59,472 bases of DNA from Eubacteriales bacterium. GTDB taxonomy: Bacteria; Bacillota; Clostridia; Oscillospirales; CAG-272. The position numbers and the translations under genes are program-made. Shown piece after piece: positions 6,411 through 27,415 of the stretch. Each line of letters opens with the position of its first letter. Position 1 is the stretch's first letter. Location of the stretch: NCBI GenBank assembly GCA_045594745.1, contig JAZNZC010000001.1:1-59472 (forward strand). The letters are read 5' to 3'. The notes under the pieces are model-generated. The model had not been told where the DNA came from, did not search any database, and saw only the letters and a program-made list of their open reading frames with translations.

Positions 6411-8408
6411 TTACTCACCGTGAAATCCATACCACTCTCCGTTTGCAACACCTAAAGGAGCTTGGTTTTTGTAATGTCCGCGCAGTCCGGGAGTTCCGTT
6501 TGTTCCATTTGTACCTACGGTGCCGTTTTTAATGCCATTGCCGCCATTGCCGCCCTTACCACCAGTGCCTTTATCGCCGCCATTTGCGACGGCAGATTGA
6601 GCTCCCCAACCTGCCCAAATAGAAGTTTCGTAATAGCCGCCATTGCCGCCATTGCCGCCATTACCGCCATTACCGCCATTACCGCCGTTACCTTGTTGCC
6701 CGTTAGTAACATTGTAATTTGTCGATTGCTGAATTTCACACGATGTTGCATTTCCTGCTGCACCGCCATTACCACCGTTACCGCCATGGCCACCATTGCC
6801 GCCTTTGCCGCCATTTAGAACATCCACGCGATATTCGCGTGCACCATTTCCTTCGCCGCCATTACCGCCATAACCACCATTACCGCCATTGCCTCCGTGG
6901 CCACCGGATCCGCCGGTAATTTTGATTGTTCCGTTTGAGAGAAGACTGATTGCTTCGGCTTTTATTGCAAATCCACCATTGCCACCATTTGCACCATGAC
7001 CACCACAACTTCCGTTGAGGGCACGATTTTCTTGACCGGCATGTTGATTTTTGCCGGTCCAAGATGAATTATAATTGAAAGGGGGAGCAGTATTGTAACC
7101 CAATTCGCCGCCGTCGTCTCTGTAATAGATCCAATAGGTTCCGTCTCCGTTAATTCCATTTGCGCCACTACCGCCATTACCGCCATTGCCACCTGTTATT
7201 TCGCACGATATGTCTCCAATTATGGCAACCGCTTCTGCAATAATAGCGTGACCGCCATTTGTGCCGTTCGTTCCGTTTGCACCGGATTCTCCGTCAGGGC
7301 CGATTGTTCCATATGTAGGGGTACTTCCATCTATTCCGTTTCCTGCTCTGATATCCAAGTTTCCAGTACCTTTAATTTCTAACGAGGATTTGCCTATATC
7401 AATAACATTGCCGCCTGCGATAGATGTTGTAATAGAAGAATTACCTTTTGTGACAATTGTGAGTCTTATATTTCCACAATTGGTAAGAACAAAGGCGGAT
7501 TTTTCGTTGGTTACAAAATTAAAGTCTTCGAGATGTATAACTAATTCTTGACCTTCACTAAAATCAAGTAATTCAATGTACAGATTAGTGAATGTTTTTC
7601 GAGCAGTGCCAATCAAAAAAACTTCACAAACAGTATTTGTTATAGTGATACTATTGCGCGCCGCATCATGATTTAGGAAATTAGTATCTGCCTCTCTTGC
7701 CAAATCAATAGTGTTGGAACCACTTTCTAATTTGAAAGGGATAGCATCAATTGATCCGTAAGGTTTTGTTTTCCATTTTGCATACAAATTCAGCTCTCTT
7801 GGGTTTGTAAGCAAATTGTTTTCAAATGGAATTGTGTATGCATTGTCCTCATACCAGCCCAAAAAAAGATTAGATTCCGGATCAATATCATACTCCACTT
7901 GGGGAATGGTTACATTGTTTTCAATAGTATATTTTGCGGGGTAGTTGTTTCCTTTTATATAAGTTCCACCATTAAGATGATACTTGATTTTATATGTGTG
8001 AAGTTCCCACATTGCTTTAAGCGTGATAGTTTGACCTTCAGCAGCAAGATTCTTTACAGACTGTTCATCAGAAAAATGGGAAACACCGCTTTCTGTTTCC
8101 AATTCCCATCCCACAAAGTCGTATCCCGGTTTGGTAAACTTATTTTTGGCTAAATTTTGGGGTTGGTTGATGCGATGTATAGTAGTGTTTGTATTACCCG
8201 TACCACCGTTTGCATCGTAATTTACGTAGTAAAGAGGTTCTTCAAAAATTTCAAGGTCAATTCCAATTTTGCTCAACAAAGAGCCGATGATTGAGTAAAA
8301 GGGTTCATCATTGCCTGAAGATAGCGCATCCCCTACTATATTAAAAATCAAAAATATAGTAAAAGCTACACCAACAATCCATATCAAAACTTTTGCTTTA
8401 CGATTCAT
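6411..8408 (-). CDS. Membrane-anchored surface protein: two InlB-B/Listeria-Bacteroides repeats plus PGRS-like glycine-rich C-terminus
   Basis: N-terminal TM helix; YDANGGTG...GYDFVGW and YHLNGG...FLGWY...LYAKW; many GGNGG repeats; AGGAGG RBS. Confidence 0.8.
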
Positions 8409-19867: not shown

Positions 19868-20631
19868 CAGTAAGAGAACTTTACGCGTTTTTGGAAGAGA
19901 AGATGCCGCGCGCTCTTTCTTGCGATTGGGATAATGACGGCCTGATGGTCTCTGCCGATGACACAAAAGAGGTTCGCCGCGTGCTGGTTGCACTTGATAT
20001 TACCGCCGCGGTGGCAGAGCACGCTATCAAAGAGGGGTACGACCTTGTCGTATCGCATCACCCCCTTATTTTCCATGCCATCAAAGCGGTGTGCCCGGGG
20101 GATGTTACGGTCAATAAGGTTATTCGTCTGCTTACGTCGGGCGTTTCGGCTATGAGCTTTCATACCCGTCTCGATGCGGTGAGCGGCGGCGTGAACGACG
20201 TTCTCGCAAATGCCATCGGACTTTGCGACGTTACGCCCTTTGGCAAAGATGGCGAAGAGATTGGTCGCATCGGCAATCTTCCCAAGCCAATGTCGCTCAA
20301 GGATTTTGCCGCGCTTGTCAAAGAGGCAACGGGTGCAAAATACGTACAAATCAGTGATGGTGGCAAGCCTGTCTCTCGCGTAGCCGTATTGGGCGGCGGC
20401 GGAGCAGGTGAATCAGGTGCGGCAGCAGCCGCAGGCGCGGATACGTATCTGACGGGAGATCTTCGCCACGACCAACTCACCGAAGCCCCTGAGCGAGGTA
20501 TGAACCTCGTTCAAGGCGGACACTTTTATACCGAAAACCTCGTGTGTGAGCGCATTCGCGAAATGCTTCACGAGGCTGATGCAACCATTGCGGTGGATAT
20601 TATTGACAGCTACCCCGCAGAATTTGTTTGA
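19864..20631 (+). CDS. Nif3-like dinuclear metal protein
   Basis: WDNDGL, SHHPLIF, HTRLD, GHFYTE. Confidence 0.9.
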   Translation: MTVRELYAFLEEKMPRALSCDWDNDGLMVSADDTKEVRRVLVALDITAAVAEHAIKEGYDLVVSHHPLIFHAIKAVCPGDVTVNKVIRLLTSGVSAMSFHTRLDAVSGGVNDVLANAIGLCDVTPFGKDGEEIGRIGNLPKPMSLKDFAALVKEATGAKYVQISDGGKPVSRVAVLGGGGAGESGAAAAAGADTYLTGDLRHDQLTEAPERGMNLVQGGHFYTENLVCERIREMLHEADATIAVDIIDSYPAEFV

Positions 20632-20648
20632 TATCAAGGAGAAAAGCG

Positions 20649-21302
20649 ATGACTTACGTAATTTCGGATATTTGCGGCAACTATCAAAAATTCAAGGAGC
20701 TGATGGATAACGTTCTCATCAGCGATAGCGATACGCTCTACATTCTCGGCAACACCGTTGATTTTGGCGACGAGCCGATGGAGCTGATCGAGGACATCAG
20801 TATGCGCGCAAACGTCTACGCAGTAGCAGGCGAGCGCGACTATCTTGCCGCACGTATGCTGTACGGCTTTGATAAGATGCTCAAGGGTGGCACCACGCCC
20901 GATGCAAATTATATTTCCGAGATGACCGCATGGGTCGCCGAGGGCGGACAAACCACTCTCGACGGCTTCCGTGCACTCGATGCCGACTCCCGTGAGGGTG
21001 TGCTCGATTATCTTGCCGAAATGACGCTTTACGAAGAAGCAGACGTGAAGGGCAAAACATACATTCTGATGAGTCGCGGCATTGCAAATTACGACCCGGA
21101 TACCGATCTTGAGGACTACGAGCCCGAGGACTTTTTCGCGCCCGACGCAACCGCTCCAGAGATCGAGGATGCCATTGTTGTAGTTGGCGGAGAGCCCACC
21201 AAGAGCGGCAAGATCGAGCGAGAGGGCAGCGTGATTCGCATCAACTGCGGTGCAAAACTCGCGTGCCTCTGCCTTGAGACCGGCAAGGAGTTCTACGTCT
21301 GA
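20649..21302 (+). CDS. Calcineurin-like metallophosphoesterase homolog with degenerate active site
   Basis: YVISDICG, LYILGNTVDFG, GERD in place of SDxHG, GDxxDRG, GNHE. Confidence 0.7.
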   Translation: MTYVISDICGNYQKFKELMDNVLISDSDTLYILGNTVDFGDEPMELIEDISMRANVYAVAGERDYLAARMLYGFDKMLKGGTTPDANYISEMTAWVAEGGQTTLDGFRALDADSREGVLDYLAEMTLYEEADVKGKTYILMSRGIANYDPDTDLEDYEPEDFFAPDATAPEIEDAIVVVGGEPTKSGKIEREGSVIRINCGAKLACLCLETGKEFYV

Positions 21303-22696
21303 TGCAAAAAAATGATATTTTGCGTGTCCGCATCGAGGAGATCAACAATCTCGGCTTTGGCGTGGCACACGCAGAAGAGAAGAACGGCACGCGCGGCAAG
21401 GTCATTTTTGTGCGCGATGCTGTCACCGATGATGTGCTGGATGCGCGTATCATCAAAGTGAATAAAAGTTATCTCATTGCAAAAATTGAAAGAATGATAG
21501 AGCCCTCTGCGCTTCGCGCAACCGAGGGCGTTTGCACCGCCGCGGGATGCGGAGGGTGCGTTTATCAGCATATCCAGTATGAGCACGAAGCCGCCCTCAA
21601 GCGCGACTACGTCGAAAATGCATTCCGCAAAGCGGGGCTTTCGGATGTGAAAGTGGGCGAGCTTCGCCACACGGGAGAACTGACACGCTACCGCAACAAG
21701 GCGCAGTATCCCGTTGCTAACGGCAAGGCGGGAATGGTCGCGGGCTTTTATGCCACGGGTACACATCGCATCGTGCCTATGTCCGATTGCGCGCTTCAGC
21801 CCGAGGTGTTTGGCAAAATCGTGAACTACATCTGCGCGTTTTGCGACCGTAACGGCATTCGCGCCTACGAAGAAGAAAACGGATGCGGCGAATTGCGCCA
21901 CATTTATCTGCGCACGGGCGCCGAGACGGGCGAGGTGATGGTTTGCCTCGTTGTCAACGGCAAACATCTCAAAAACGAGGATACCCTCGCACGCGAATTG
22001 ACAGAGTATTTCCCCTCTGTCAAGAGTGTGATGCTCAATGTCAACCACGAGAATACCAACGTCGTCCTTGGCGATGACTACCGCTGCATCGGCGGCCACG
22101 ATTATATCGAGGATGTTTTGTGCGGACTGACATTCCGCATCTCCGCGGGAGCATTTTATCAGGTCAATCACAACGCCTGCGAGCTGCTTTACGGCATCGC
22201 GCGCGAGCGCGCAAAACTGACAGGAAAAGAGACCGTCCTCGACCTTTACTGCGGCATTGGCACCATCGGGCTTTCGATGGCAAAGGAGACGGAGAAGGTC
22301 ATCGGTATTGAGATCGTCGAAGAAGCCGTCACACGCGCTGCCGAGAATGCCGCGCGCAACAACATAACAAACGCCTATTTTTATTGCGGTGACGCTTCAA
22401 ACGCCGAAAAGCTGTTGGAGCGAACAGAGGCCGCCCACGGCGATATCTCGGGAGCAACCGTCATTATGGACCCCCCTCGCAAGGGAAGCACGCCCGAGCT
22501 CATCACCTACCTCGCCAAGCGCAACTTCGCGCGCATCGTCTACGTCTCCTGCAACCCCGACACCCTCGCCCGCGATTGCGTGCTGTTCAGAGAATTGGGA
22601 TACGAAATTGGAGAGGTAACGCCTGTGGATATGTTCCCGAGGACAGGACACGTGGAAAGTGTCGTTTGTCTGACGCGGTCAGACAAAGCGACGTGA
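21302..22696 (+). CDS. rlmD: 23S rRNA m5U1939 methyltransferase
   Basis: TRAM domain, CGGC, YRNKAQ, FYQVN, DLYCGIGTIG, DPPRKG, YVSCNP, VDMFPRTGHVE. Confidence 0.95.
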   Translation: MQKNDILRVRIEEINNLGFGVAHAEEKNGTRGKVIFVRDAVTDDVLDARIIKVNKSYLIAKIERMIEPSALRATEGVCTAAGCGGCVYQHIQYEHEAALKRDYVENAFRKAGLSDVKVGELRHTGELTRYRNKAQYPVANGKAGMVAGFYATGTHRIVPMSDCALQPEVFGKIVNYICAFCDRNGIRAYEEENGCGELRHIYLRTGAETGEVMVCLVVNGKHLKNEDTLARELTEYFPSVKSVMLNVNHENTNVVLGDDYRCIGGHDYIEDVLCGLTFRISAGAFYQVNHNACELLYGIARERAKLTGKETVLDLYCGIGTIGLSMAKETEKVIGIEIVEEAVTRAAENAARNNITNAYFYCGDASNAEKLLERTEAAHGDISGATVIMDPPRKGSTPELITYLAKRNFARIVYVSCNPDTLARDCVLFRELGYEIGEVTPVDMFPRTGHVESVVCLTRSDKAT

Positions 22697-22961
22697 TATA
22701 ACGCCTTACGGCGCGTGATATAGAACGCTTCGCGTTCGTGATATGCACCCTTCGGGTGCGTGATATGTCGCTTGCGCGACGTAAGGCGATGGCGTTCCAC
22801 GCTCGGCTTTGCCGAGCATATCACGCCGAGCAACGCGAGGCTATATCACGCTTGGCGCAGCCAAGCATATCACGAAAGCCAACGGCTTTCCATATCACGC
22901 GCGACGAAGTTGCGCTATATCACGACGGCAACGCCGTCTATATCACTCCACCGTAGGTGGA
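22692..22961. repeat. Hairpin array: 4x CGTGATAT then 6x ATATCAC linkers separating 11 sequence-variable stem-loops
   Basis: e.g. gcaccc-ttc-gggtgc, gctcggc-ttt-gccgagc, gcttggc-gca-gccaagc, gaaagcc-aac-ggctttc, tccacc-gta-ggtgga. Confidence 0.9.
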
Positions 22962-22976
22962 CCAAAAGGAGTATTT

Positions 22977-23330
22977 ATGGCAAAAACCTCACACGAACTC
23001 GCGATTGAATTTGCAGTTGAGATTACTGAATTATGCTCAAGAATAAAAGGGCGACCTGAATATACAAAGCAACTTATTCGCAGTGCATCTTCGATTAGTG
23101 CGAATATTGCTGAAGCTAAATATGCCGAGAGTAATGCTGACTTTGTTCATAAGCTCGAAATAGCCCAAAAGGAAGCAAACGAAACCGAAACTTGGCTTAG
23201 TGTTTTGTGTAAGAGCGGTATTATTGATGAGCTCACTTTCAAATCTTTACGAAACAAGTGTGGTAAGATCAGAAGAATGTTGATTGCTTCTATTACGACT
23301 GTTAAATCAAAATCTAACAGACAAAAGTGA
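22977..23330 (+). CDS. Four-helix bundle protein (23S rRNA IVP / Avd-like family)
   Basis: QLIRSASSISANIAEA...DFVHKLEIAQKEANETETWL signature; AAGGAG RBS. Confidence 0.88.
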   Translation: MAKTSHELAIEFAVEITELCSRIKGRPEYTKQLIRSASSISANIAEAKYAESNADFVHKLEIAQKEANETETWLSVLCKSGIIDELTFKSLRNKCGKIRRMLIASITTVKSKSNRQK

Positions 23331-23387
23331 TTTTTGAGCAAAACTCGAAATTCTTATTTACAGCTGTTTGGTATAACATATCGAAAG
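23328..23387 (+). repeat. Repeat B copy 1 (pre-ORF motif, possible extended -10 promoter)
   Basis: ttttgagcaa.actc.aaa...tttaca.ctgtttggtataacatatcgaaag, also at 26118-26176. Confidence 0.7.
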
Positions 23388-23412
23388 TTTTTTCATAAAG
23401 GGGGAACGAAAA

Positions 23413-23679
23413 TTGACAAATAAAGAAATGATTTTAGATAGCTTAATTGACGATGACGAAGCATTTACTCAAATAGTGGAATATTTTGAGTTGGTTGCCG
23501 AAATCAAAATATCTCATCAAGAAGTTGAAAAATTATTAGAAGAAATGTTAGATGAAGGCTATATTTCTATAAATTATAGCTGGAAAAATGAACATGGTGA
23601 ATACCCATATTCGTTGACTGAAAAAGGCAAAAAGGCTTGGGAAGAAATAAAGGAGTTATATATAGTCATCCATTTATAA
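23413..23679 (+). CDS. Cassette cargo: small winged-helix-like protein
   Basis: TTG start after AAGGGGG; LLEEMLDEGYI...YSLTEKGK wing motif. Confidence 0.65.
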   Translation: MTNKEMILDSLIDDDEAFTQIVEYFELVAEIKISHQEVEKLLEEMLDEGYISINYSWKNEHGEYPYSLTEKGKKAWEEIKELYIVIHL

Positions 23680-23680
23680 A

Positions 23681-23815
23681 ATGAGACTTTAAGGTAAGCA
23701 ACCTTTCGGAGAGGGAGCAAAATATACCTTTTGGCTTTACAACCCCCGTTTTTGACACAAAAATATACCTTTTGGTCTTATGACCCATGTTGAGTCCGTC
23801 GTTTGTCTGACGCGG
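23681..23815 (+). repeat. Cassette junction 1 (three boxes plus rlmD tail)
   Basis: Boxes at 23683, 23723, 23764; tail catgttgagtccgtcgtttgtctgacgcgg at 23786. Confidence 0.85.
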
Positions 23816-23826
23816 AAGGAGTAAGT

Positions 23827-24192
23827 ATGGATAATATTTTTACAACAATTCAAAAATTAACCGAATTAAATGACTTTTACTCGGTCTTATCCTTTCTTCG
23901 TGAAAAGGAAAAGGAGGGCGATATTGTTTTATATGCAGGAACATATTGTTTTGAAATGGCTTTAGAACGTTTTGGTAATTACGATGATGCTTCTTTTTAC
24001 ATTTACACTACGCAAGATAAGAGCGGGTATTGTGTTTACATAAATAGAATGGGGTGTGGAATCCGTGAGGATAACAAAATCTTTAAATTTTCTCACCGTT
24101 ATCTATACAATAAAAACCATTTAAGTAACTGTTTCTTTGGAGAAAAGGATTGCCGTTCTGGCGAATATTTTAAGAAAAAGAGTAAAAAGTGA
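23827..24192 (+). CDS. Cassette cargo: hypothetical protein
   Basis: AAGGAG RBS inside the tail repeat; stop inside next arm. Confidence 0.7.
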   Translation: MDNIFTTIQKLTELNDFYSVLSFLREKEKEGDIVLYAGTYCFEMALERFGNYDDASFYIYTTQDKSGYCVYINRMGCGIREDNKIFKFSHRYLYNKNHLSNCFFGEKDCRSGEYFKKKSKK

Positions 24193-24243
24193 GACCTTTT
24201 GCTTTCACAACCCCCATTTTTGACAGGTTTTGAGACCTTTTGC
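24185..24243 (+). repeat. Truncated junction (two boxes, no rlmD tail)
   Basis: gagaccttttg at 24191 and 24232 with caaccccc between. Confidence 0.8.
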
Positions 24244-24284
24244 GAAGCAAAAACTTCACCAATCAACAAAAAGGAGAAAGCAAT

Positions 24285-24743
24285 ATGAGAAAAAAACGCA
24301 CATTTGCCTTTCATAGCAGATTAGATCCACGCAATTTTGGTGTAAGAATGCAAGAAGAAGCGAAACAAGCACGTTTACCAATTGAGCAATCCGAAAATGC
24401 ATTTAATTTGCGTATTGACGGCAATCACGGTGGTCAAGTTTTCTATCAGGCTCGCATATCCGCAGACGAATATGGTGGCTCTCTTATAGAAGGGGAGATA
24501 ATCACCATTCCTTGGAATGAGGGTGAAAATAAAACTAAGTTCGAAAAAGTTATGGAAGTGATTGGTTACGTACTTGGTGGTATTGTTTTGTCACCTATTA
24601 TCATTTTGGTTTTTCTAATTTTGGGATTTGATGAATTGTTTTGTCTTTTTAAAAACAAGGGCAAAAGAGAATTGCCAAGAGAAGAGAAAAAACTTCTTGA
24701 TTTTATGCTCAATAAACTATGTTGTACTCAAATTACGGATTAA
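24285..24743 (+). CDS. Cassette cargo: hypothetical membrane protein
   Basis: AAGGAG RBS; one C-terminal hydrophobic segment. Confidence 0.7.
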   Translation: MRKKRTFAFHSRLDPRNFGVRMQEEAKQARLPIEQSENAFNLRIDGNHGGQVFYQARISADEYGGSLIEGEIITIPWNEGENKTKFEKVMEVIGYVLGGIVLSPIIILVFLILGFDELFCLFKNKGKRELPREEKKLLDFMLNKLCCTQITD

Positions 24744-24751
24744 GTCGCGGT

Positions 24752-24849
24752 AAAAATATACCTTTTGTAGTTTCCACCCCCGTTTTTGGCACAAAAATAT
24801 ACCTTTTGGAGTCTTAACCCACGTCGAGTCCGTCGTGTGTCTCACAAGG
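24752..24849 (+). repeat. Cassette junction 2
   Basis: Boxes at 24757, 24798; tail at 24820. Confidence 0.85.
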
Positions 24850-24857
24850 AGATAATT

Positions 24858-25250
24858 ATGGAGTTTAGCGAAATTTATAAAACAGTTTTTGAAATCAATC
24901 CCAGCTTGAAAGACAAGATTGAAAACGACGCAAAAGACTTTTGCGTCATCAAATTTCATGAATATTTGACGATTGGATTTGATGATGATTATGTTGATAT
25001 CAATCAAGGATTCACGCATGCGCATCTTGATGGAGTGGATAACAAGCTATTTTTTGATATTATTCAAGGAAATATGGTTTTTGTGCAAGACACGCGAAAG
25101 TTTTCAATAAAAATGTTTTCCTTGTTGCAACCCTGGAATTTGAAAATAACGAGCAAACAAAAATTTGAAACTAAAAAAGCTTCACTTATGAAGAAGAAGT
25201 ATTTGCGCATATATACAGCAAATGAAATCATAAAAAGAAGCGAAAAGTGA
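24858..25250 (+). CDS. Cassette cargo: hypothetical protein
   Basis: AAGGAG RBS in tail; stop inside next arm. Confidence 0.7.
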   Translation: MEFSEIYKTVFEINPSLKDKIENDAKDFCVIKFHEYLTIGFDDDYVDINQGFTHAHLDGVDNKLFFDIIQGNMVFVQDTRKFSIKMFSLLQPWNLKITSKQKFETKKASLMKKKYLRIYTANEIIKRSEK

Positions 25251-25341
25251 GATTTTAAGGTATTACACCCCCCATTTTTGACCGATTTTGAGACCTTTTG
25301 GAGTCTTGACCCATGTCGAGAGTGTCGTTTGTCTGACGAGA
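25243..25341 (+). repeat. Cassette junction 3
   Basis: Boxes at 25249, 25290; tail at 25312. Confidence 0.85.
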
Positions 25342-25354
25342 GAGGAGTAATGAT

Positions 25355-25843
25355 ATGGAAAATCTTTTATTTAGTGATGTTCCGCAAAACGATGCCAAGG
25401 TTATGAAAAGTATGAAAGTAACACGAATTGTGTTAATTATTTTTTGTGCCATTGTTTTGCTTTTTGCGGTGCTTGGCTTGATTTTGAAAGACATTGTCAT
25501 CGTGATTGATTCGGTAATTGGAATTGTGCTTTTCTTTTCTCTTTTTATAACTTGCTTGTGTATGGAACAGCAGTATTTGCTTGTTTTTACTGATAAAATC
25601 AAGTATAAAAAGGGGCTCTCAGGAAAAGAAAAGCAGTTGACAATTGCTCCAAGTCAATACAAAATCAAATTGAGAAGGCTAACCACCCGAGGCGGCTATA
25701 CGGTTTGGATGTTGTTCTACAACCAAAAAGGCAAAAGGGTGTTGTCATATAAACTGTGCCAACCCCTCACGGACAAAAGAAAATATGATTTGAGCAAAAT
25801 AGGCTGTGAAATCATTGACCGGCAAAAAGTGATAAAGCAATAA
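25355..25843 (+). CDS. Cassette cargo: two-TM membrane protein with basic soluble domain
   Basis: GAGGAG RBS; two hydrophobic helices. Confidence 0.75.
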   Translation: MENLLFSDVPQNDAKVMKSMKVTRIVLIIFCAIVLLFAVLGLILKDIVIVIDSVIGIVLFFSLFITCLCMEQQYLLVFTDKIKYKKGLSGKEKQLTIAPSQYKIKLRRLTTRGGYTVWMLFYNQKGKRVLSYKLCQPLTDKRKYDLSKIGCEIIDRQKVIKQ

Positions 25844-25872
25844 AATTGACAGAGCGGTTTCAATAAAAAGGC

Positions 25873-25972
25873 AAAAGGTGAGACTTTAAAGTATTACACC
25901 CCCTGTTTTTCGACCATTTTGAGACCTTTTGTACTCTTGATCCACGTCGAGAGTGTCGTTTGTCTGACGAGA
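25873..25972 (+). repeat. Cassette junction 4
   Basis: Boxes at 25880, 25921; tail at 25943. Confidence 0.85.
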
Positions 25973-25985
25973 AAAATTTAACCTT

Positions 25986-26063
25986 GTAGGGACCGGCCTC
26001 CCGGACGGTCCGTTGAAAAGATAAAGGCCGTTGTTGCGGACCGTCGAGGACGCCGGTCCCTAC
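25986..26063. repeat. REPIN-like inverted pair of GTAG REPs
   Basis: gtagggaccggcctcccggacggtccg ... cggaccgtcgaggacgccggtccctac. Confidence 0.8.
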
Positions 26064-26117
26064 CAAAATCGGTGTTCAAAATCAAAAAATGCCCCAATTT
26101 TGCGTTGGGACAAATGA

Positions 26118-26176
26118 TGATTTTGAGCAATACTCAAAAGTACATTTTACATCTGTTTGGTATAACATATCGAAAG
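26118..26176 (+). repeat. Repeat B copy 2
   Basis: Matches 23328-23387; degenerate third copy at about 26767-26800. Confidence 0.7.
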
Positions 26177-26184
26177 GGGATTTC

Positions 26185-26652
26185 ATGAAAAAAAGCAAAT
26201 TAAACATCATTCAAAATGAAAACAAAATTACGGTCAAGAAAAAACCTGATGTTTCAAATTGTGTTATTTTCGCAGGGGTATTTCTTGCAGGAATTTTGCT
26301 TCCCATCATTTTTGGAGAATTAAGAGATGTTCCTTTGTTTTGGGTTGTATATGCGTTTTGCATGTTAGCAAACATTGCACATTTTACATCGACATTCTTT
26401 GGGAAAGTCGTGGTTGACTCGGAAAAACGAGAAATCAACATATATAATCTGTGTAAAGAAACATACCGTTTTGATGAACTGAAAGAGCTGAAAAGTTTCT
26501 TCCAAGAAGGAGACTCGGACGGTGGAATGGACACTCATAAGGTGTTGTTTATCTTTACAAACGGGCATAAAAGCGAAATACAAACAACAAGTAAAGAACA
26601 AACCCAAGAACTCATTGATGTGTTGAACGGGGTCATATTTCCGCAAAAGTGA
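26185..26652 (+). CDS. Cassette cargo: two-TM protein with possible PH-like C-terminal domain
   Basis: AAGGGG RBS; two TM helices; stop inside next arm. Confidence 0.7.
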   Translation: MKKSKLNIIQNENKITVKKKPDVSNCVIFAGVFLAGILLPIIFGELRDVPLFWVVYAFCMLANIAHFTSTFFGKVVVDSEKREINIYNLCKETYRFDELKELKSFFQEGDSDGGMDTHKVLFIFTNGHKSEIQTTSKEQTQELIDVLNGVIFPQK

Positions 26653-26743
26653 GACTTTAAGGTATTACAACCCCCATTTTCAGCCCATTTTGAGACCTTT
26701 TGTACTCTTGATCCACGTCGAGAGTGTCGTTTGTCTGACGAGA
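26645..26743 (+). repeat. Cassette junction 5 (near-identical to junction 4)
   Basis: Boxes at 26651, 26692; tail at 26714. Confidence 0.85.
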
Positions 26744-26806
26744 AAACAACCCCGCCCTACGAAAATATTTTACAATAGTACAAGTTAACATACCGAAAGG
26801 ATAATT

Positions 26807-27361
26807 ATGATTTCTGACGAAGGAAGTAGATTCAAATCTTGGAGCAACCTAAAAAAGCAGATGAATGATTTACTTTGCGATTCACTCAAGGGGAAAATTT
26901 CGTATTTTTATACCTGTTATCACGAAGTTCACAACGCTTACGGCAGAGCGACTATCAATTATTGCAAGAACGAAATTGTCGCCTTTTCGTGGGTGGAGCG
27001 ATATCACCAGATGTACGATATGAGTGAGCAATACAAAAAGATGGATGATGGTTCACGCCCACCTGCGAATTATGAAGATGCTGTAGATGCTTATATGGCA
27101 GCCAGTGCTGTGGTCACGAAAGAAAAATGGATGCCGAATTGTACTTTGTGCGAGGCGGATTTCATCAATTCCATTACCGTTTATCTCAAGACAAATATCT
27201 CAACCGCTCTTCAATCGGATAATTATCTGTTGCGCGTATTTGCCTACATGGATAGAAGAGTTGGTAAACGAACGCTTATAAAAATCAAAGATGATGTGGA
27301 AAAGCTGCCTGAATGGGTAAGGCAGTTCTATCGCATACGCTGTGAAGCTGAGAAAGTTTGA
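26807..27361 (+). CDS. Cassette cargo: conserved hypothetical protein (resembles SF0329-type family)
   Basis: WSNLKKQ...LCDSLKGKI and DRRVGKRTL motifs recalled from a widespread uncharacterised family. Confidence 0.7.
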   Translation: MISDEGSRFKSWSNLKKQMNDLLCDSLKGKISYFYTCYHEVHNAYGRATINYCKNEIVAFSWVERYHQMYDMSEQYKKMDDGSRPPANYEDAVDAYMAASAVVTKEKWMPNCTLCEADFINSITVYLKTNISTALQSDNYLLRVFAYMDRRVGKRTLIKIKDDVEKLPEWVRQFYRIRCEAEKV

Positions 27362-27415
27362 AATATACCTTTTGACTTTATGGTCCACGTTGAGAGTGTC
27401 GTTTGTCTTTCGCGA
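27361..27415 (+). repeat. Cassette junction 6 (one box plus tail)
   Basis: Box at 27364; tail at 27386. Confidence 0.8.

Follow-up and report, generated by a model that had tools for sequence, protein, structure and literature searches.

A heptamer-linked hairpin array between rlmD and a four-helix-bundle gene, related to the Gut-1 motif

The Gut-1 motif (RF01706) was reported in 2010 as a likely non-coding RNA, and the available text of that report places it in human gut metagenomes only (Weinberg et al. 2010, PMC2864571). Rfam has listed it since then as an RNA without an assigned function, found in gut metagenomes only, and classes it as small RNA. In the Gut-1 literature, the descriptive supplement (Additional file 1) of the 2010 paper not being covered, we found neither later functional work nor a link to a protein; the available part of the supplement with the Stockholm alignment mentions neither S23 nor an intervening sequence (PMC2864571). 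Also unexplained are the PF05635/TIGR02436 "four helix bundle" proteins, whose genes are among the commonest small bacterial genes of this kind. Here, we describe a locus at which the motif and the protein stand side by side. The window, i.e. the whole stretch of 59,472 nucleotides that was analysed (contig JAZNZC010000001.1, assembly GCA_045594745.1, from a Eubacteriales bacterium), contains at 22692-22961 a comb of mini-hairpins joined by constant heptamers, located between rlmD and a gene for a four-helix-bundle (4HB) protein. The comparison with related arrays indicated that the catalogued Gut-1 motif covers one half of an array that is larger, asymmetric and strand-polarised, precedes almost every PF05635 gene in these bacteria and is under extreme purifying selection. 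Gut-1 is a known but unexplained motif, of which the array represents a new linker variant; neither the build nor the probable protein partner of the larger element was found in print.

Several other described systems resemble the locus in part. Intervening sequences of 23S rRNA that bear an open reading frame (ORF) encode an S23p/PF05635 protein in Leptospira and Coxiella. They share with the window the protein family, inverted hairpin-forming repeats and an association with stable-RNA loci, and the 4HB gene of the window indeed matches PF05635 at 90.1 bits (cut-off 33.8). However, the ORF is not enclosed, as both blocks of the array precede it, and the blocks form combs of mini-hairpins and heptamers instead of one long stem. 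In addition, the array is located between rlmD and the ORF, and Rfam found no rRNA in 20000-26000, so that a 23S rRNA intervening sequence was rejected. Repetitive extragenic palindromes (REP) and bacterial interspersed mosaic elements (BIME), together with the REP-associated tyrosine transposases (RAYT), are dispersed intergenic hairpin repeats near gene ends, which sometimes form clusters of alternating orientation. In REP the hairpin sequence is conserved and the linkers vary, whereas the array in the window shows the reverse. A REP/RAYT system was dismissed because the hairpins differ within arrays and the best PF01797 match in the 81%-complete genome reached 20.1 bits, below the cut-off of 23. 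The trp RNA-binding attenuation protein (TRAP) is a ring oligomer that reads evenly spaced short motifs on the trp leader RNA, one per subunit; it has 11 subunits, and its triplet motifs are separated by 2-3 nt and involve no hairpins. This likeness is an analogy of working only, as the fold is unrelated to that of the 4HB protein. Clustered regularly interspaced short palindromic repeats (CRISPR) would require repeats of at least 23 nt, non-palindromic spacers of about 30 nt and cas genes; here, the repeats have only 7-8 nt and the "spacers" are palindromes of 14-18 nt, and a CRISPR array was rejected on these grounds (cas genes were not scanned for).

Two further systems bear on the protein and on the hairpins, respectively. 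In the available part of a preprint, Avd of diversity-generating retroelements is described as a pentameric, positively charged four-helix-bundle barrel, of which all five protomers bind an RNA stem-loop, several of them through equivalent contacts, and flipped-out bases sit in crevices between protomers (bioRxiv 10.1101/2023.10.23.563531). The Avd ligand described there is a single stem-loop, whereas the ligand proposed here is a repeat array. A diversity-generating retroelement was rejected because no reverse transcriptase (RT) gene was found near any PF05635 gene; template and variable repeats (TR/VR) were not searched for. The only RT (RVT_1) match of the genome, a 303-aa ORF at G000:C74:2698-3609, has by eye a retron-like N-terminus. 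According to the available text of another source, DNA mini-hairpins of the d(GCGAAGC) type melt at 76.5 C, compared with 39 C for the RNA r(GCGAAAGC), and d(GCGNAGC) mini-hairpins occur in single-strand initiation signals and in the hairpin promoters of phage N4 (PMC13037366). The array shares with them the C-GNA-G triloop with a sheared G-A pair; hairpins of this type have a far higher stability as DNA than as RNA and are recognised by proteins on single-stranded DNA. In contrast, the systems in that text contain single hairpins or groups of three at replication or transcription starts, and neither arrays with constant linkers nor a 4HB gene are described in it (PMC13037366).

Anatomy of the array and its relation to Gut-1

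The array consists of 10 heptamers, four GTGATAT followed by six ATATCAC, between 11 mini-hairpins. This build had been noticed in a sequence-only reading of the window and was confirmed. The linker CGTGATAT was found on the forward strand at the four claimed positions (22692, 22714, 22737 and 22759), and its reverse complement at 22818, 22843, 22867, 22892 and 22917; the sixth reverse linker, at 22940, is ATATCAC and lacks the final G. In the whole window, CGTGATAT has 11 matches, 9 of which fall within the array, compared with an expectation of 1.49, and none of 100 shuffles reached 11. The array is far beyond chance. The linkers recur every 22-23 nt in the first block, and the period of the second block is 23-25 nt, in agreement with the range given earlier.

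The hairpins claimed between the linkers were also verified. At least 4 contiguous Watson-Crick pairs were present in 7 of the 9 short inter-linker segments (mean of 0.9 and maximum of 5 in 2000 shuffles), and 6 of the 9 contained a stem of at least 5 bp (shuffle mean 0.16, maximum 2). The remaining two segments also form hairpins, 22899-22916 with a G-T wobble and 22825-22842 with a tandem G-A internal loop. The latter had been regarded as weak; it is nevertheless a hairpin, and its tandem G-A internal loop recurs widely in related arrays. The 51-nt middle segment contains two further hairpins and a centre of 21 nt, which brings the total to 11. Folding of the region, which had been suggested as a check, gave for either strand a structure far more stable than those of shuffled sequences (z = -8.1 and -8.9).

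Two blocks can be distinguished. The gene-distal block A (22692-22780) contains four GTGATAT linkers (22693, 22715, 22738 and 22760) and hairpins 1-4; its structured strand would be the minus strand, on which the loops read GAA, GAA, GTAA and GCAA. The gene-proximal block B (22802-22961) contains six ATATCAC linkers (22818, 22843, 22867, 22892, 22917 and 22940) and hairpins 5-11, and the putative structured strand is the plus strand, with the loops GCA, GAA and GTA and the tandem G-A and G-T wobble hairpins mentioned above. Between the blocks lies the asymmetric centre GTAAGGCGATGGCGTTCCACG (22781-22801), which holds the 3' strand of a closing helix, P1. When each block is read on the strand that runs outward from the centre, 7 of the 11 loops are of the G...A type (GAA three times, GCA, GTAA, GCAA and GTA), while the other four are AAC (three times) and TTT. 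The array thus displays the characteristics of the DNA mini-hairpins (C-GNA-G or C-GNNA-G), namely G...A loops and C-G closing pairs on one strand. As had been stated, the rlmD ORF ends at 22696 with its stop codon inside the first linker, and the last hairpin comes close to the next ribosome-binding site (RBS): it ends at 22961, 6 nt before the GGAG, and the ATG of the 4HB gene follows at 22977.

The Gut-1 covariance model matched the array at 34.2 bits (22691-22771, plus strand) and at 25.9 bits (22838-22925, minus strand). Both matches are below the gathering cut-off of 50 bits and do not confer membership by score; the other arrays of the same genome scored 34-44 bits. The architecture, however, is that of Gut-1, with at least three variable hairpins joined by one constant heptamer and an alignment that spans model positions 1-77 of 77, and the gut habitat is common to both. 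The linkers, GUGAAAU in Gut-1 and GUGAUAU here, differ by one base. Judged by these features, the array is best classified as a GUGAUAU-linker variant of the Gut-1 motif that stays below the threshold. A match to an already described repeat family, which the sequence-only reading had named as an argument against its proposal, was therefore found in part, as sub-threshold membership in RF01706. The element in the window is about three times as long as the 77-nt model, with two inverted blocks, a centre and a closing helix.

Matches to Gut-1 of at least 50 bits were located 150-250 nt upstream of PF05635 genes, in the gene-distal block, at 16 of 20 loci, and the array of the window likewise lies upstream of a PF05635 gene. 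The distal blocks scored 51-78 bits, and three matches in proximal blocks 50-51 bits. A tRNA gene on the same strand was found just upstream at 14 of the 20 loci, and an RNase P RNA gene at one. The strand of the Rfam model is opposite to the strand with the GNA loops. On the model strand, aligned at 22691-22771, the loops are UNC, and the loop statistics of the whole family favour the other strand. The Rfam entry may therefore describe the antisense strand, which raises the possibility that the model is on the wrong strand or even of the wrong kind of nucleic acid.

Gene linkage, strand polarity and selection

Homologous arrays exist outside the window: of 78 genomes from the genus, 26 contained GTGATAT arrays, and the reversed control gave no hits. 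The GTGATAT array is unique in the 2.26-Mb assembly, but a scan for any short word repeated at a period of 16-32 nt with an inverted second block revealed about 16 arrays of the same build in that genome. Many of them are near contig ends, several adjoin tRNA or RNase P RNA genes, and their linkers include [AG]TGATG, GTGAAG, ATGAAGC, GTTATGA and ATATCGA. Within an array the linkers are identical, between arrays they differ (GTGATAT, [AG]TGATG, GTTATGA, GTGAAG and others), and the hairpins are not homogenised. Such a pattern would fit an array-specific reader better than concerted evolution.

The 4HB gene of the window (22977-23330, plus strand) encodes a protein of 117 aa, which matches TIGR02436 at 97.9 bits and belongs to the family of 23S rRNA intervening-sequence proteins and Avd-like proteins. 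The proposed search for co-occurring genes showed that each of the five PF05635 genes of the genome has an array immediately upstream and reads away from it. The family is present in 26 of 41 related genomes. In these genomes a two-block detector was positive upstream of the gene at 17 of the 25 loci with a full upstream flank, compared with 1 of 28 downstream. On reading, all eight upstream misses turned out to carry variant heptamer arrays: one comb has degenerate linkers, three loci carry four tandem octamers immediately ahead of the RBS, and four have two inverted blocks of tandem heptamers behind a tRNA gene, without mini-hairpins. Because these hairpin-less variants retain the blocks, what stays constant is a heptamer repeated in two inverted blocks, with the mini-hairpins as spacers that can be dispensed with. 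The linkage was also quantified in 80 gut and rumen genome records, mostly Clostridia (including Oscillospiraceae, Acutalibacteraceae and Christensenellaceae) with a few bins labelled Bacteroidota or Verrucomicrobiota. At least six two-block copies were present upstream of 53 of 74 genes with a full flank and downstream of 3 of 75; with at least seven copies, the numbers were 38 upstream and 0 downstream. The link is one-sided: most of the genes have an array, while most arrays have no such gene beside them. Closely related 4HB proteins go with the same or similar linkers, and 8 of the 11 gene-less arrays of the genome share the linker type of resident arrays that are linked to a 4HB gene.

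Some loci showed peculiar arrangements. The leaders with four tandem octamers (AGTGCAGA-type; L013, L015 and L020) contain no hairpins and no obvious inverted block. Hairpin-less arrays with two inverted tandem-heptamer blocks behind tRNA genes were seen at six loci (L025, L028, L032, L036, L163 and L165), and at all six the centre repeats the 3' half of the stem of the upstream terminator, so that the 5' half of the terminator can pair either locally or across the first block. At L016 (G026:C6) the 4HB gene lies between two copies of the distal block, of which the upstream one is interrupted by the contig end and the downstream one comes with its proximal block; this layout suggests recombination between arrays. 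L161 and L162, two near-identical loci on viral contigs, differ in that the terminator and three distal units have been cleanly deleted from one of them, which amounts to a naturally truncated array. A phage origin was rejected, as only 12 relatives (7 of full length), with the same tRNA-array-gene layout, were found in 2.9 million viral contigs.

An orthologue of the array was found in six genomes. At four of the five orthologous loci with rlmD, the identity was 64-71% for rlmD, 80-93% for the array and 84-86% for the 4HB gene. The close relative G058 showed the opposite order, with 91-92% identity in rlmD and 75%, with indels, in the array. In G044, the cassette is located away from rlmD; it follows another cassette, and a copy of approximately the last 40 nt of rlmD stands before it. 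These comparisons show that the array and the 4HB gene move together, as one cassette that is found at the 3' end of rlmD.

The strand polarity of the hairpins was quantified for 367 hairpins from 433 unique units, each of which was read on the strand running 5' to 3' away from the centre. On this strand, GNA triloops outnumbered the opposite type, TNC, by 120 to 6, and GNNA tetraloops outnumbered TNNC by 75 to 3. Tandem G-A pairs were present 26 times and tandem T-C pairs not at all. The closing pair was C-G in 303 of the hairpins, and there were 227 triloops and 120 tetraloops. In contrast, 14 G-T and 18 A-C pairs were counted in about 2300 pairs, so that there was no excess of G-U/G-T that would mark a strand or an RNA. 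In one hairpin the loop is GCA, GACA, GATA or GTA depending on the orthologue, and G...A is always retained. From these biases we infer that there is one structured strand per block, namely the outward-running one.

A trunk formed by pairing of the linkers of the two blocks, which had been proposed earlier, was not supported. In the window and the six orthologous arrays (the one in G074 is interrupted by a contig end), block A always has 4 linkers, whereas complete arrays contain between 4 and 6 in block B, where units have been gained and lost. One-to-one pairing is thus not conserved. The fold of minimum free energy does pair the linkers, as it would for any inverted repeat; the comparative data argue against it. 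A different long-range helix, P1, was found instead. In the window, 22702-22710 pairs with 22780-22788 over 9 bp and thereby joins the end of linker 1 and the 5' half of hairpin 1 to the centre; the helix closes the first block only and competes with hairpin 1. Helices of the P1 type of at least 8 nt were present in 25 of 43 related arrays, compared with 1 of 43 in the mirror control and an average of 5.0 nt in shuffles, and their sequences differ between array families. The distal block is thus closed by a long-range helix that covaries. We also considered pairing between the centre and the end of rlmD (CGTGGAA/TTCCACG), but its left partner changes between orthologues without compensation, and P1 was preferred. 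Within the orthologue set, covariation could not be detected, as the sequences are too similar and block A is invariant.

The extent of conservation became apparent when the array was compared with the four-fold degenerate sites of the 4HB gene. These differ at 24 of 41 sites in comparison with G014 and at 18 of 42 in comparison with G058, i.e. at 43-58%. For the same two genomes, block A shows 0 differences in 89 positions in either case, and the centre 1 and 0 in 21 (0-2 in 21 columns across the six orthologues). Because they are invariant at such distances, the distal block and the centre, including stems and loops, are under strong purifying selection. In block B, 18 of 126 and 20 of 128 positions differ, respectively, and whole units were gained or lost; this block is looser, which fits the higher Rfam scores of distal blocks. 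The earlier statement that the stem sequences are not conserved is thus correct for the units of one array and incorrect between species, where block A is nearly invariant.

How the array may work

The view of the sequence-only reading that the comb did not arise by slippage and represents a structured single-stranded scaffold or a multivalent binding array gained support from the homologous arrays in relatives. Slippage and a role of the duplex alone were set aside because each block has one structured strand, P1 covaries, the sequence is invariant, and the linkers are identical without homogenisation of the hairpins. We propose, as the most likely function, that the comb provides the nucleic-acid partner in a cassette of two parts and acts as a strand-specific scaffold, on which identical heptamers are presented to the probably pentameric 4HB protein. 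This proposal is tentative, and we rate it somewhat short of an even chance. On the outward strand of each block, very stable mini-hairpins, in which a C-G pair closes a GNA or GNNA loop and which in some cases contain tandem G-A pairs, would keep the heptamers unpaired and evenly spaced. The heptamers (ATATCAC here) would then serve as repeated docking sites for the ring-shaped protein from the adjacent gene, with one linker per protomer. The distal block and the centre, closed by P1, would form the conserved core, the part that Rfam models as Gut-1, and the gene-proximal block a looser, expandable array. Gene-less arrays could be further targets, or decayed or propagated copies.

The protein was chosen because the adjacent 4HB protein is the only array-specific factor in view. 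Its relatives in the PDB, 2RLD (E = 4e-20) and 2GSC, have five chains per entry each, and by analogy the 4HB protein is probably pentameric; docking of the ring on unpaired heptamers was proposed on the basis of these relatives and of the Avd pentamer that grips a stem-loop. None of the PADLOC models of anti-phage defence matched the 4HB protein (0 families at E <= 0.01). The hairpin type leans towards single-stranded DNA as the active form instead of RNA, in view of the C-GNA-G triloops, stems of Watson-Crick pairs without an excess of wobbles, the stability of DNA hairpins, and the many arrays located between a terminator and a promoter. It may be speculated that, owing to the inverted arrangement, a passing replication fork or polymerase would always meet one of the two blocks in the favoured sense, irrespective of its direction. 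In a broader form, Gut-1 arrays and PF05635 proteins would constitute one widespread, undescribed recognition system, in which a pentameric ring reads strings of identical heptamers, set between ultra-stable DNA mini-hairpins, on transiently single-stranded DNA, candidates for which are the lagging-strand template and the non-template strand. This generalisation appears unlikely to us; if true, it would give a first function to a very large orphan family (23S intervening-sequence proteins and Avd relatives) and to a 16-year-old orphan motif, and it could explain the persistence or spread of small cassettes and of gene-less copies.

Several observations weigh against the proposed protein-binding scaffold. 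A 4HB gene is not adjacent to 11 of the 16 arrays in the genome, and among 25 GTGATAT arrays sampled elsewhere in the genus, 22 likewise have no such neighbour; 15 of the 41 related genomes have no PF05635 match. G053 retains the orthologous array without a 4HB ORF; the 68-nt segment that in the window lies at and after the end of this ORF there comes immediately after the array. The array can therefore persist alone. The co-variation of linkers and proteins is confounded by the co-inheritance of adjacent parts, and the invariance of the block A stems between species exceeds what a simple spacer would need. Furthermore, between rlmD, the array and the 4HB gene, and within the array of the window, no promoter or terminator beyond shuffle expectation was found, which makes transcription of the array probable at this locus. 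In RNA libraries from three studies, short contigs match 22689-22802 and 22867-22946 with 98-100% identity.

These last points belong equally to the view that the array works as RNA, as a structured leader or intercistronic element of an rlmD-4HB transcript or of tRNA read-through transcripts. Variants thereof are a processing or stability module like the RNase III-cut stem of the 23S rRNA intervening sequences, and a free small RNA, as the Rfam classification assumes. We consider a function as RNA rather unlikely in general, though less so in the window, where the array is probably co-transcribed. It would agree with an array that, with nothing separating it from rlmD and the RBS, is probably part of an mRNA, with the same-strand position just after tRNA or RNase P RNA genes at 15 of the 20 loci and at several places in the genome, with the resemblance of P1 and its multiloop to an RNA motif, and with the occurrence of GNRA-like loops and tandem G-A pairs in RNA. 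However, G-U pairs are not enriched (about 0.6% of pairs) and triloops outnumber tetraloops, and in the conserved distal block the favoured strand runs opposite to the tRNA and 4HB genes, i.e. antisense. An antisense small RNA from a sigma-70 promoter was rejected, as such promoters were not enriched (15 of 53 arrays, 11 of 53 controls). The same scans, which comprised 53 arrays with a control for each, detected a terminator-like hairpin before the first linker in 26 (controls: 6), 23 of which also read as a terminator on the other strand, and a sigma-70-like promoter after the last linker in 19 (controls: 6). With a terminator before them and a promoter only after the last linker, such arrays lie outside the 4HB mRNA. 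The RNA-library contigs end at about 22689 and 22802, points at which variants diverge. The RNA-seq check proposed earlier, with four runs, thus yielded short contigs over parts of the array; as contigs show neither strand nor ends, they were not counted as expression.

Two further readings put the element itself, or its duplex, in the foreground. The array could be mainly a selfish dispersed repeat of the MITE (miniature inverted-repeat transposable element) or REP type, with hairpins and heptamers that serve its own spread or insertion, e.g. at lagging-strand DNA or terminators, and with the 4HB gene as cargo or helper of the full-length element. The copy number of about 16 with many copies at contig ends, the excess of gene-less over gene-linked arrays, the location at tRNA or terminator sites, the gain and loss of units between orthologues, the higher identity of the cassette than of rlmD and its second place in line in G044 all agree with this. 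Nevertheless, we regard it as distinctly unlikely as the main explanation: no transposase is linked to the arrays, no Y1/HUH transposase above cut-off was found in the 81%-complete genome, and neither target-site duplications nor empty sites were seen for the array itself. In addition, the local cassette joints are repeats of the rlmD end and not the comb, and the near-invariance of block A, compared with saturated synonymous sites, points to a maintained function and not to the drift of a parasite. A selfish origin is compatible with the protein-binding scaffold. Still less probable, in our view, is a double-stranded operator or iteron array, at which a regulator, possibly the 4HB protein, would bind heptamers on duplex DNA ahead of the 4HB promoter, with a spacing of about two helical turns. 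In favour of this reading, a repeat every 22-25 bp nearly corresponds to two turns of the helix, the -35 box adjoins the last linker in C78, C81 and C133 and in 10 of the 13 cases with a strong promoter, and two inverted blocks resemble partition or operator sites. But a duplex site gives no reason for palindromic spacers and leaves the loop bias of 120:6, the tandem G-A bias of 26:0 and the covarying helix P1 unexplained, and the hairpin-less variants, with a heptamer period of 7-8 bp, would have a different helical phasing.

The rlmD cassette and its surroundings

The upstream gene rlmD (21302-22696, plus strand) encodes the 23S rRNA (uracil-1939-C5)-methyltransferase (TIGR00479, 376 bits, cut-off 183.55), and terminates with a TGA inside the first linker. 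On its left, the cassette is bordered by the att-like 27-nt 3' end of rlmD (22649-22675, plus strand), which is present in seven copies in the window with 70-93% identity. It overlaps a 10-bp hairpin, TTTGTCTGAC/GTCAGACAAA, at 22665-22688, the 5' half of which is rlmD/att sequence, while the 3' half comes from the cassette. The hairpin is near-invariant in the window and the six orthologues, with the exception of G053, which departs in the 3' half; the other six att-like copies of the window lack this 3' half.

Downstream of rlmD, the region 22649-27412 forms an integron-like string of small-ORF cassettes. The 27-nt rlmD end recurs at 22649, 23786, 24820, 25312, 25943, 26714 and 27386, each time within a repeat of about 57-100 nt. 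Most of the small ORFs between these copies have no Pfam match; one has a weak winged-helix match (23413-23679). The comb was also considered as a cassette joint and was rejected, because the joints are the rlmD-end repeats, each of which closes a small-ORF cassette. At and after the 4HB stop codon lies a 68-nt segment (23320-23387, plus strand) that recurs at 26109-26176 and in relatives. The two copies form a direct repeat of 81% identity, which carries the promoter-like TTTACA...TATAAC, and copies recur several times in the relatives L073, L076 and L077. Within the string, 25986-26063 is a GC-rich inverted repeat with 27-nt arms that are 89% complementary and 24 nt apart.

Other repeats were seen outside the cassette string. 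Long runs with periods of 9 nt and 12 nt (CCGCCATTA-type and ACCGGTGACAAT-type) at 6493-7187 of the window and at G000:C82:8933-9487 are probably coding repeats of surface or secreted proteins. At the start of a contig (G000:C95:1-250), a near-perfect inverted repeat of about 100 nt was present, which may be an assembly fold-back.

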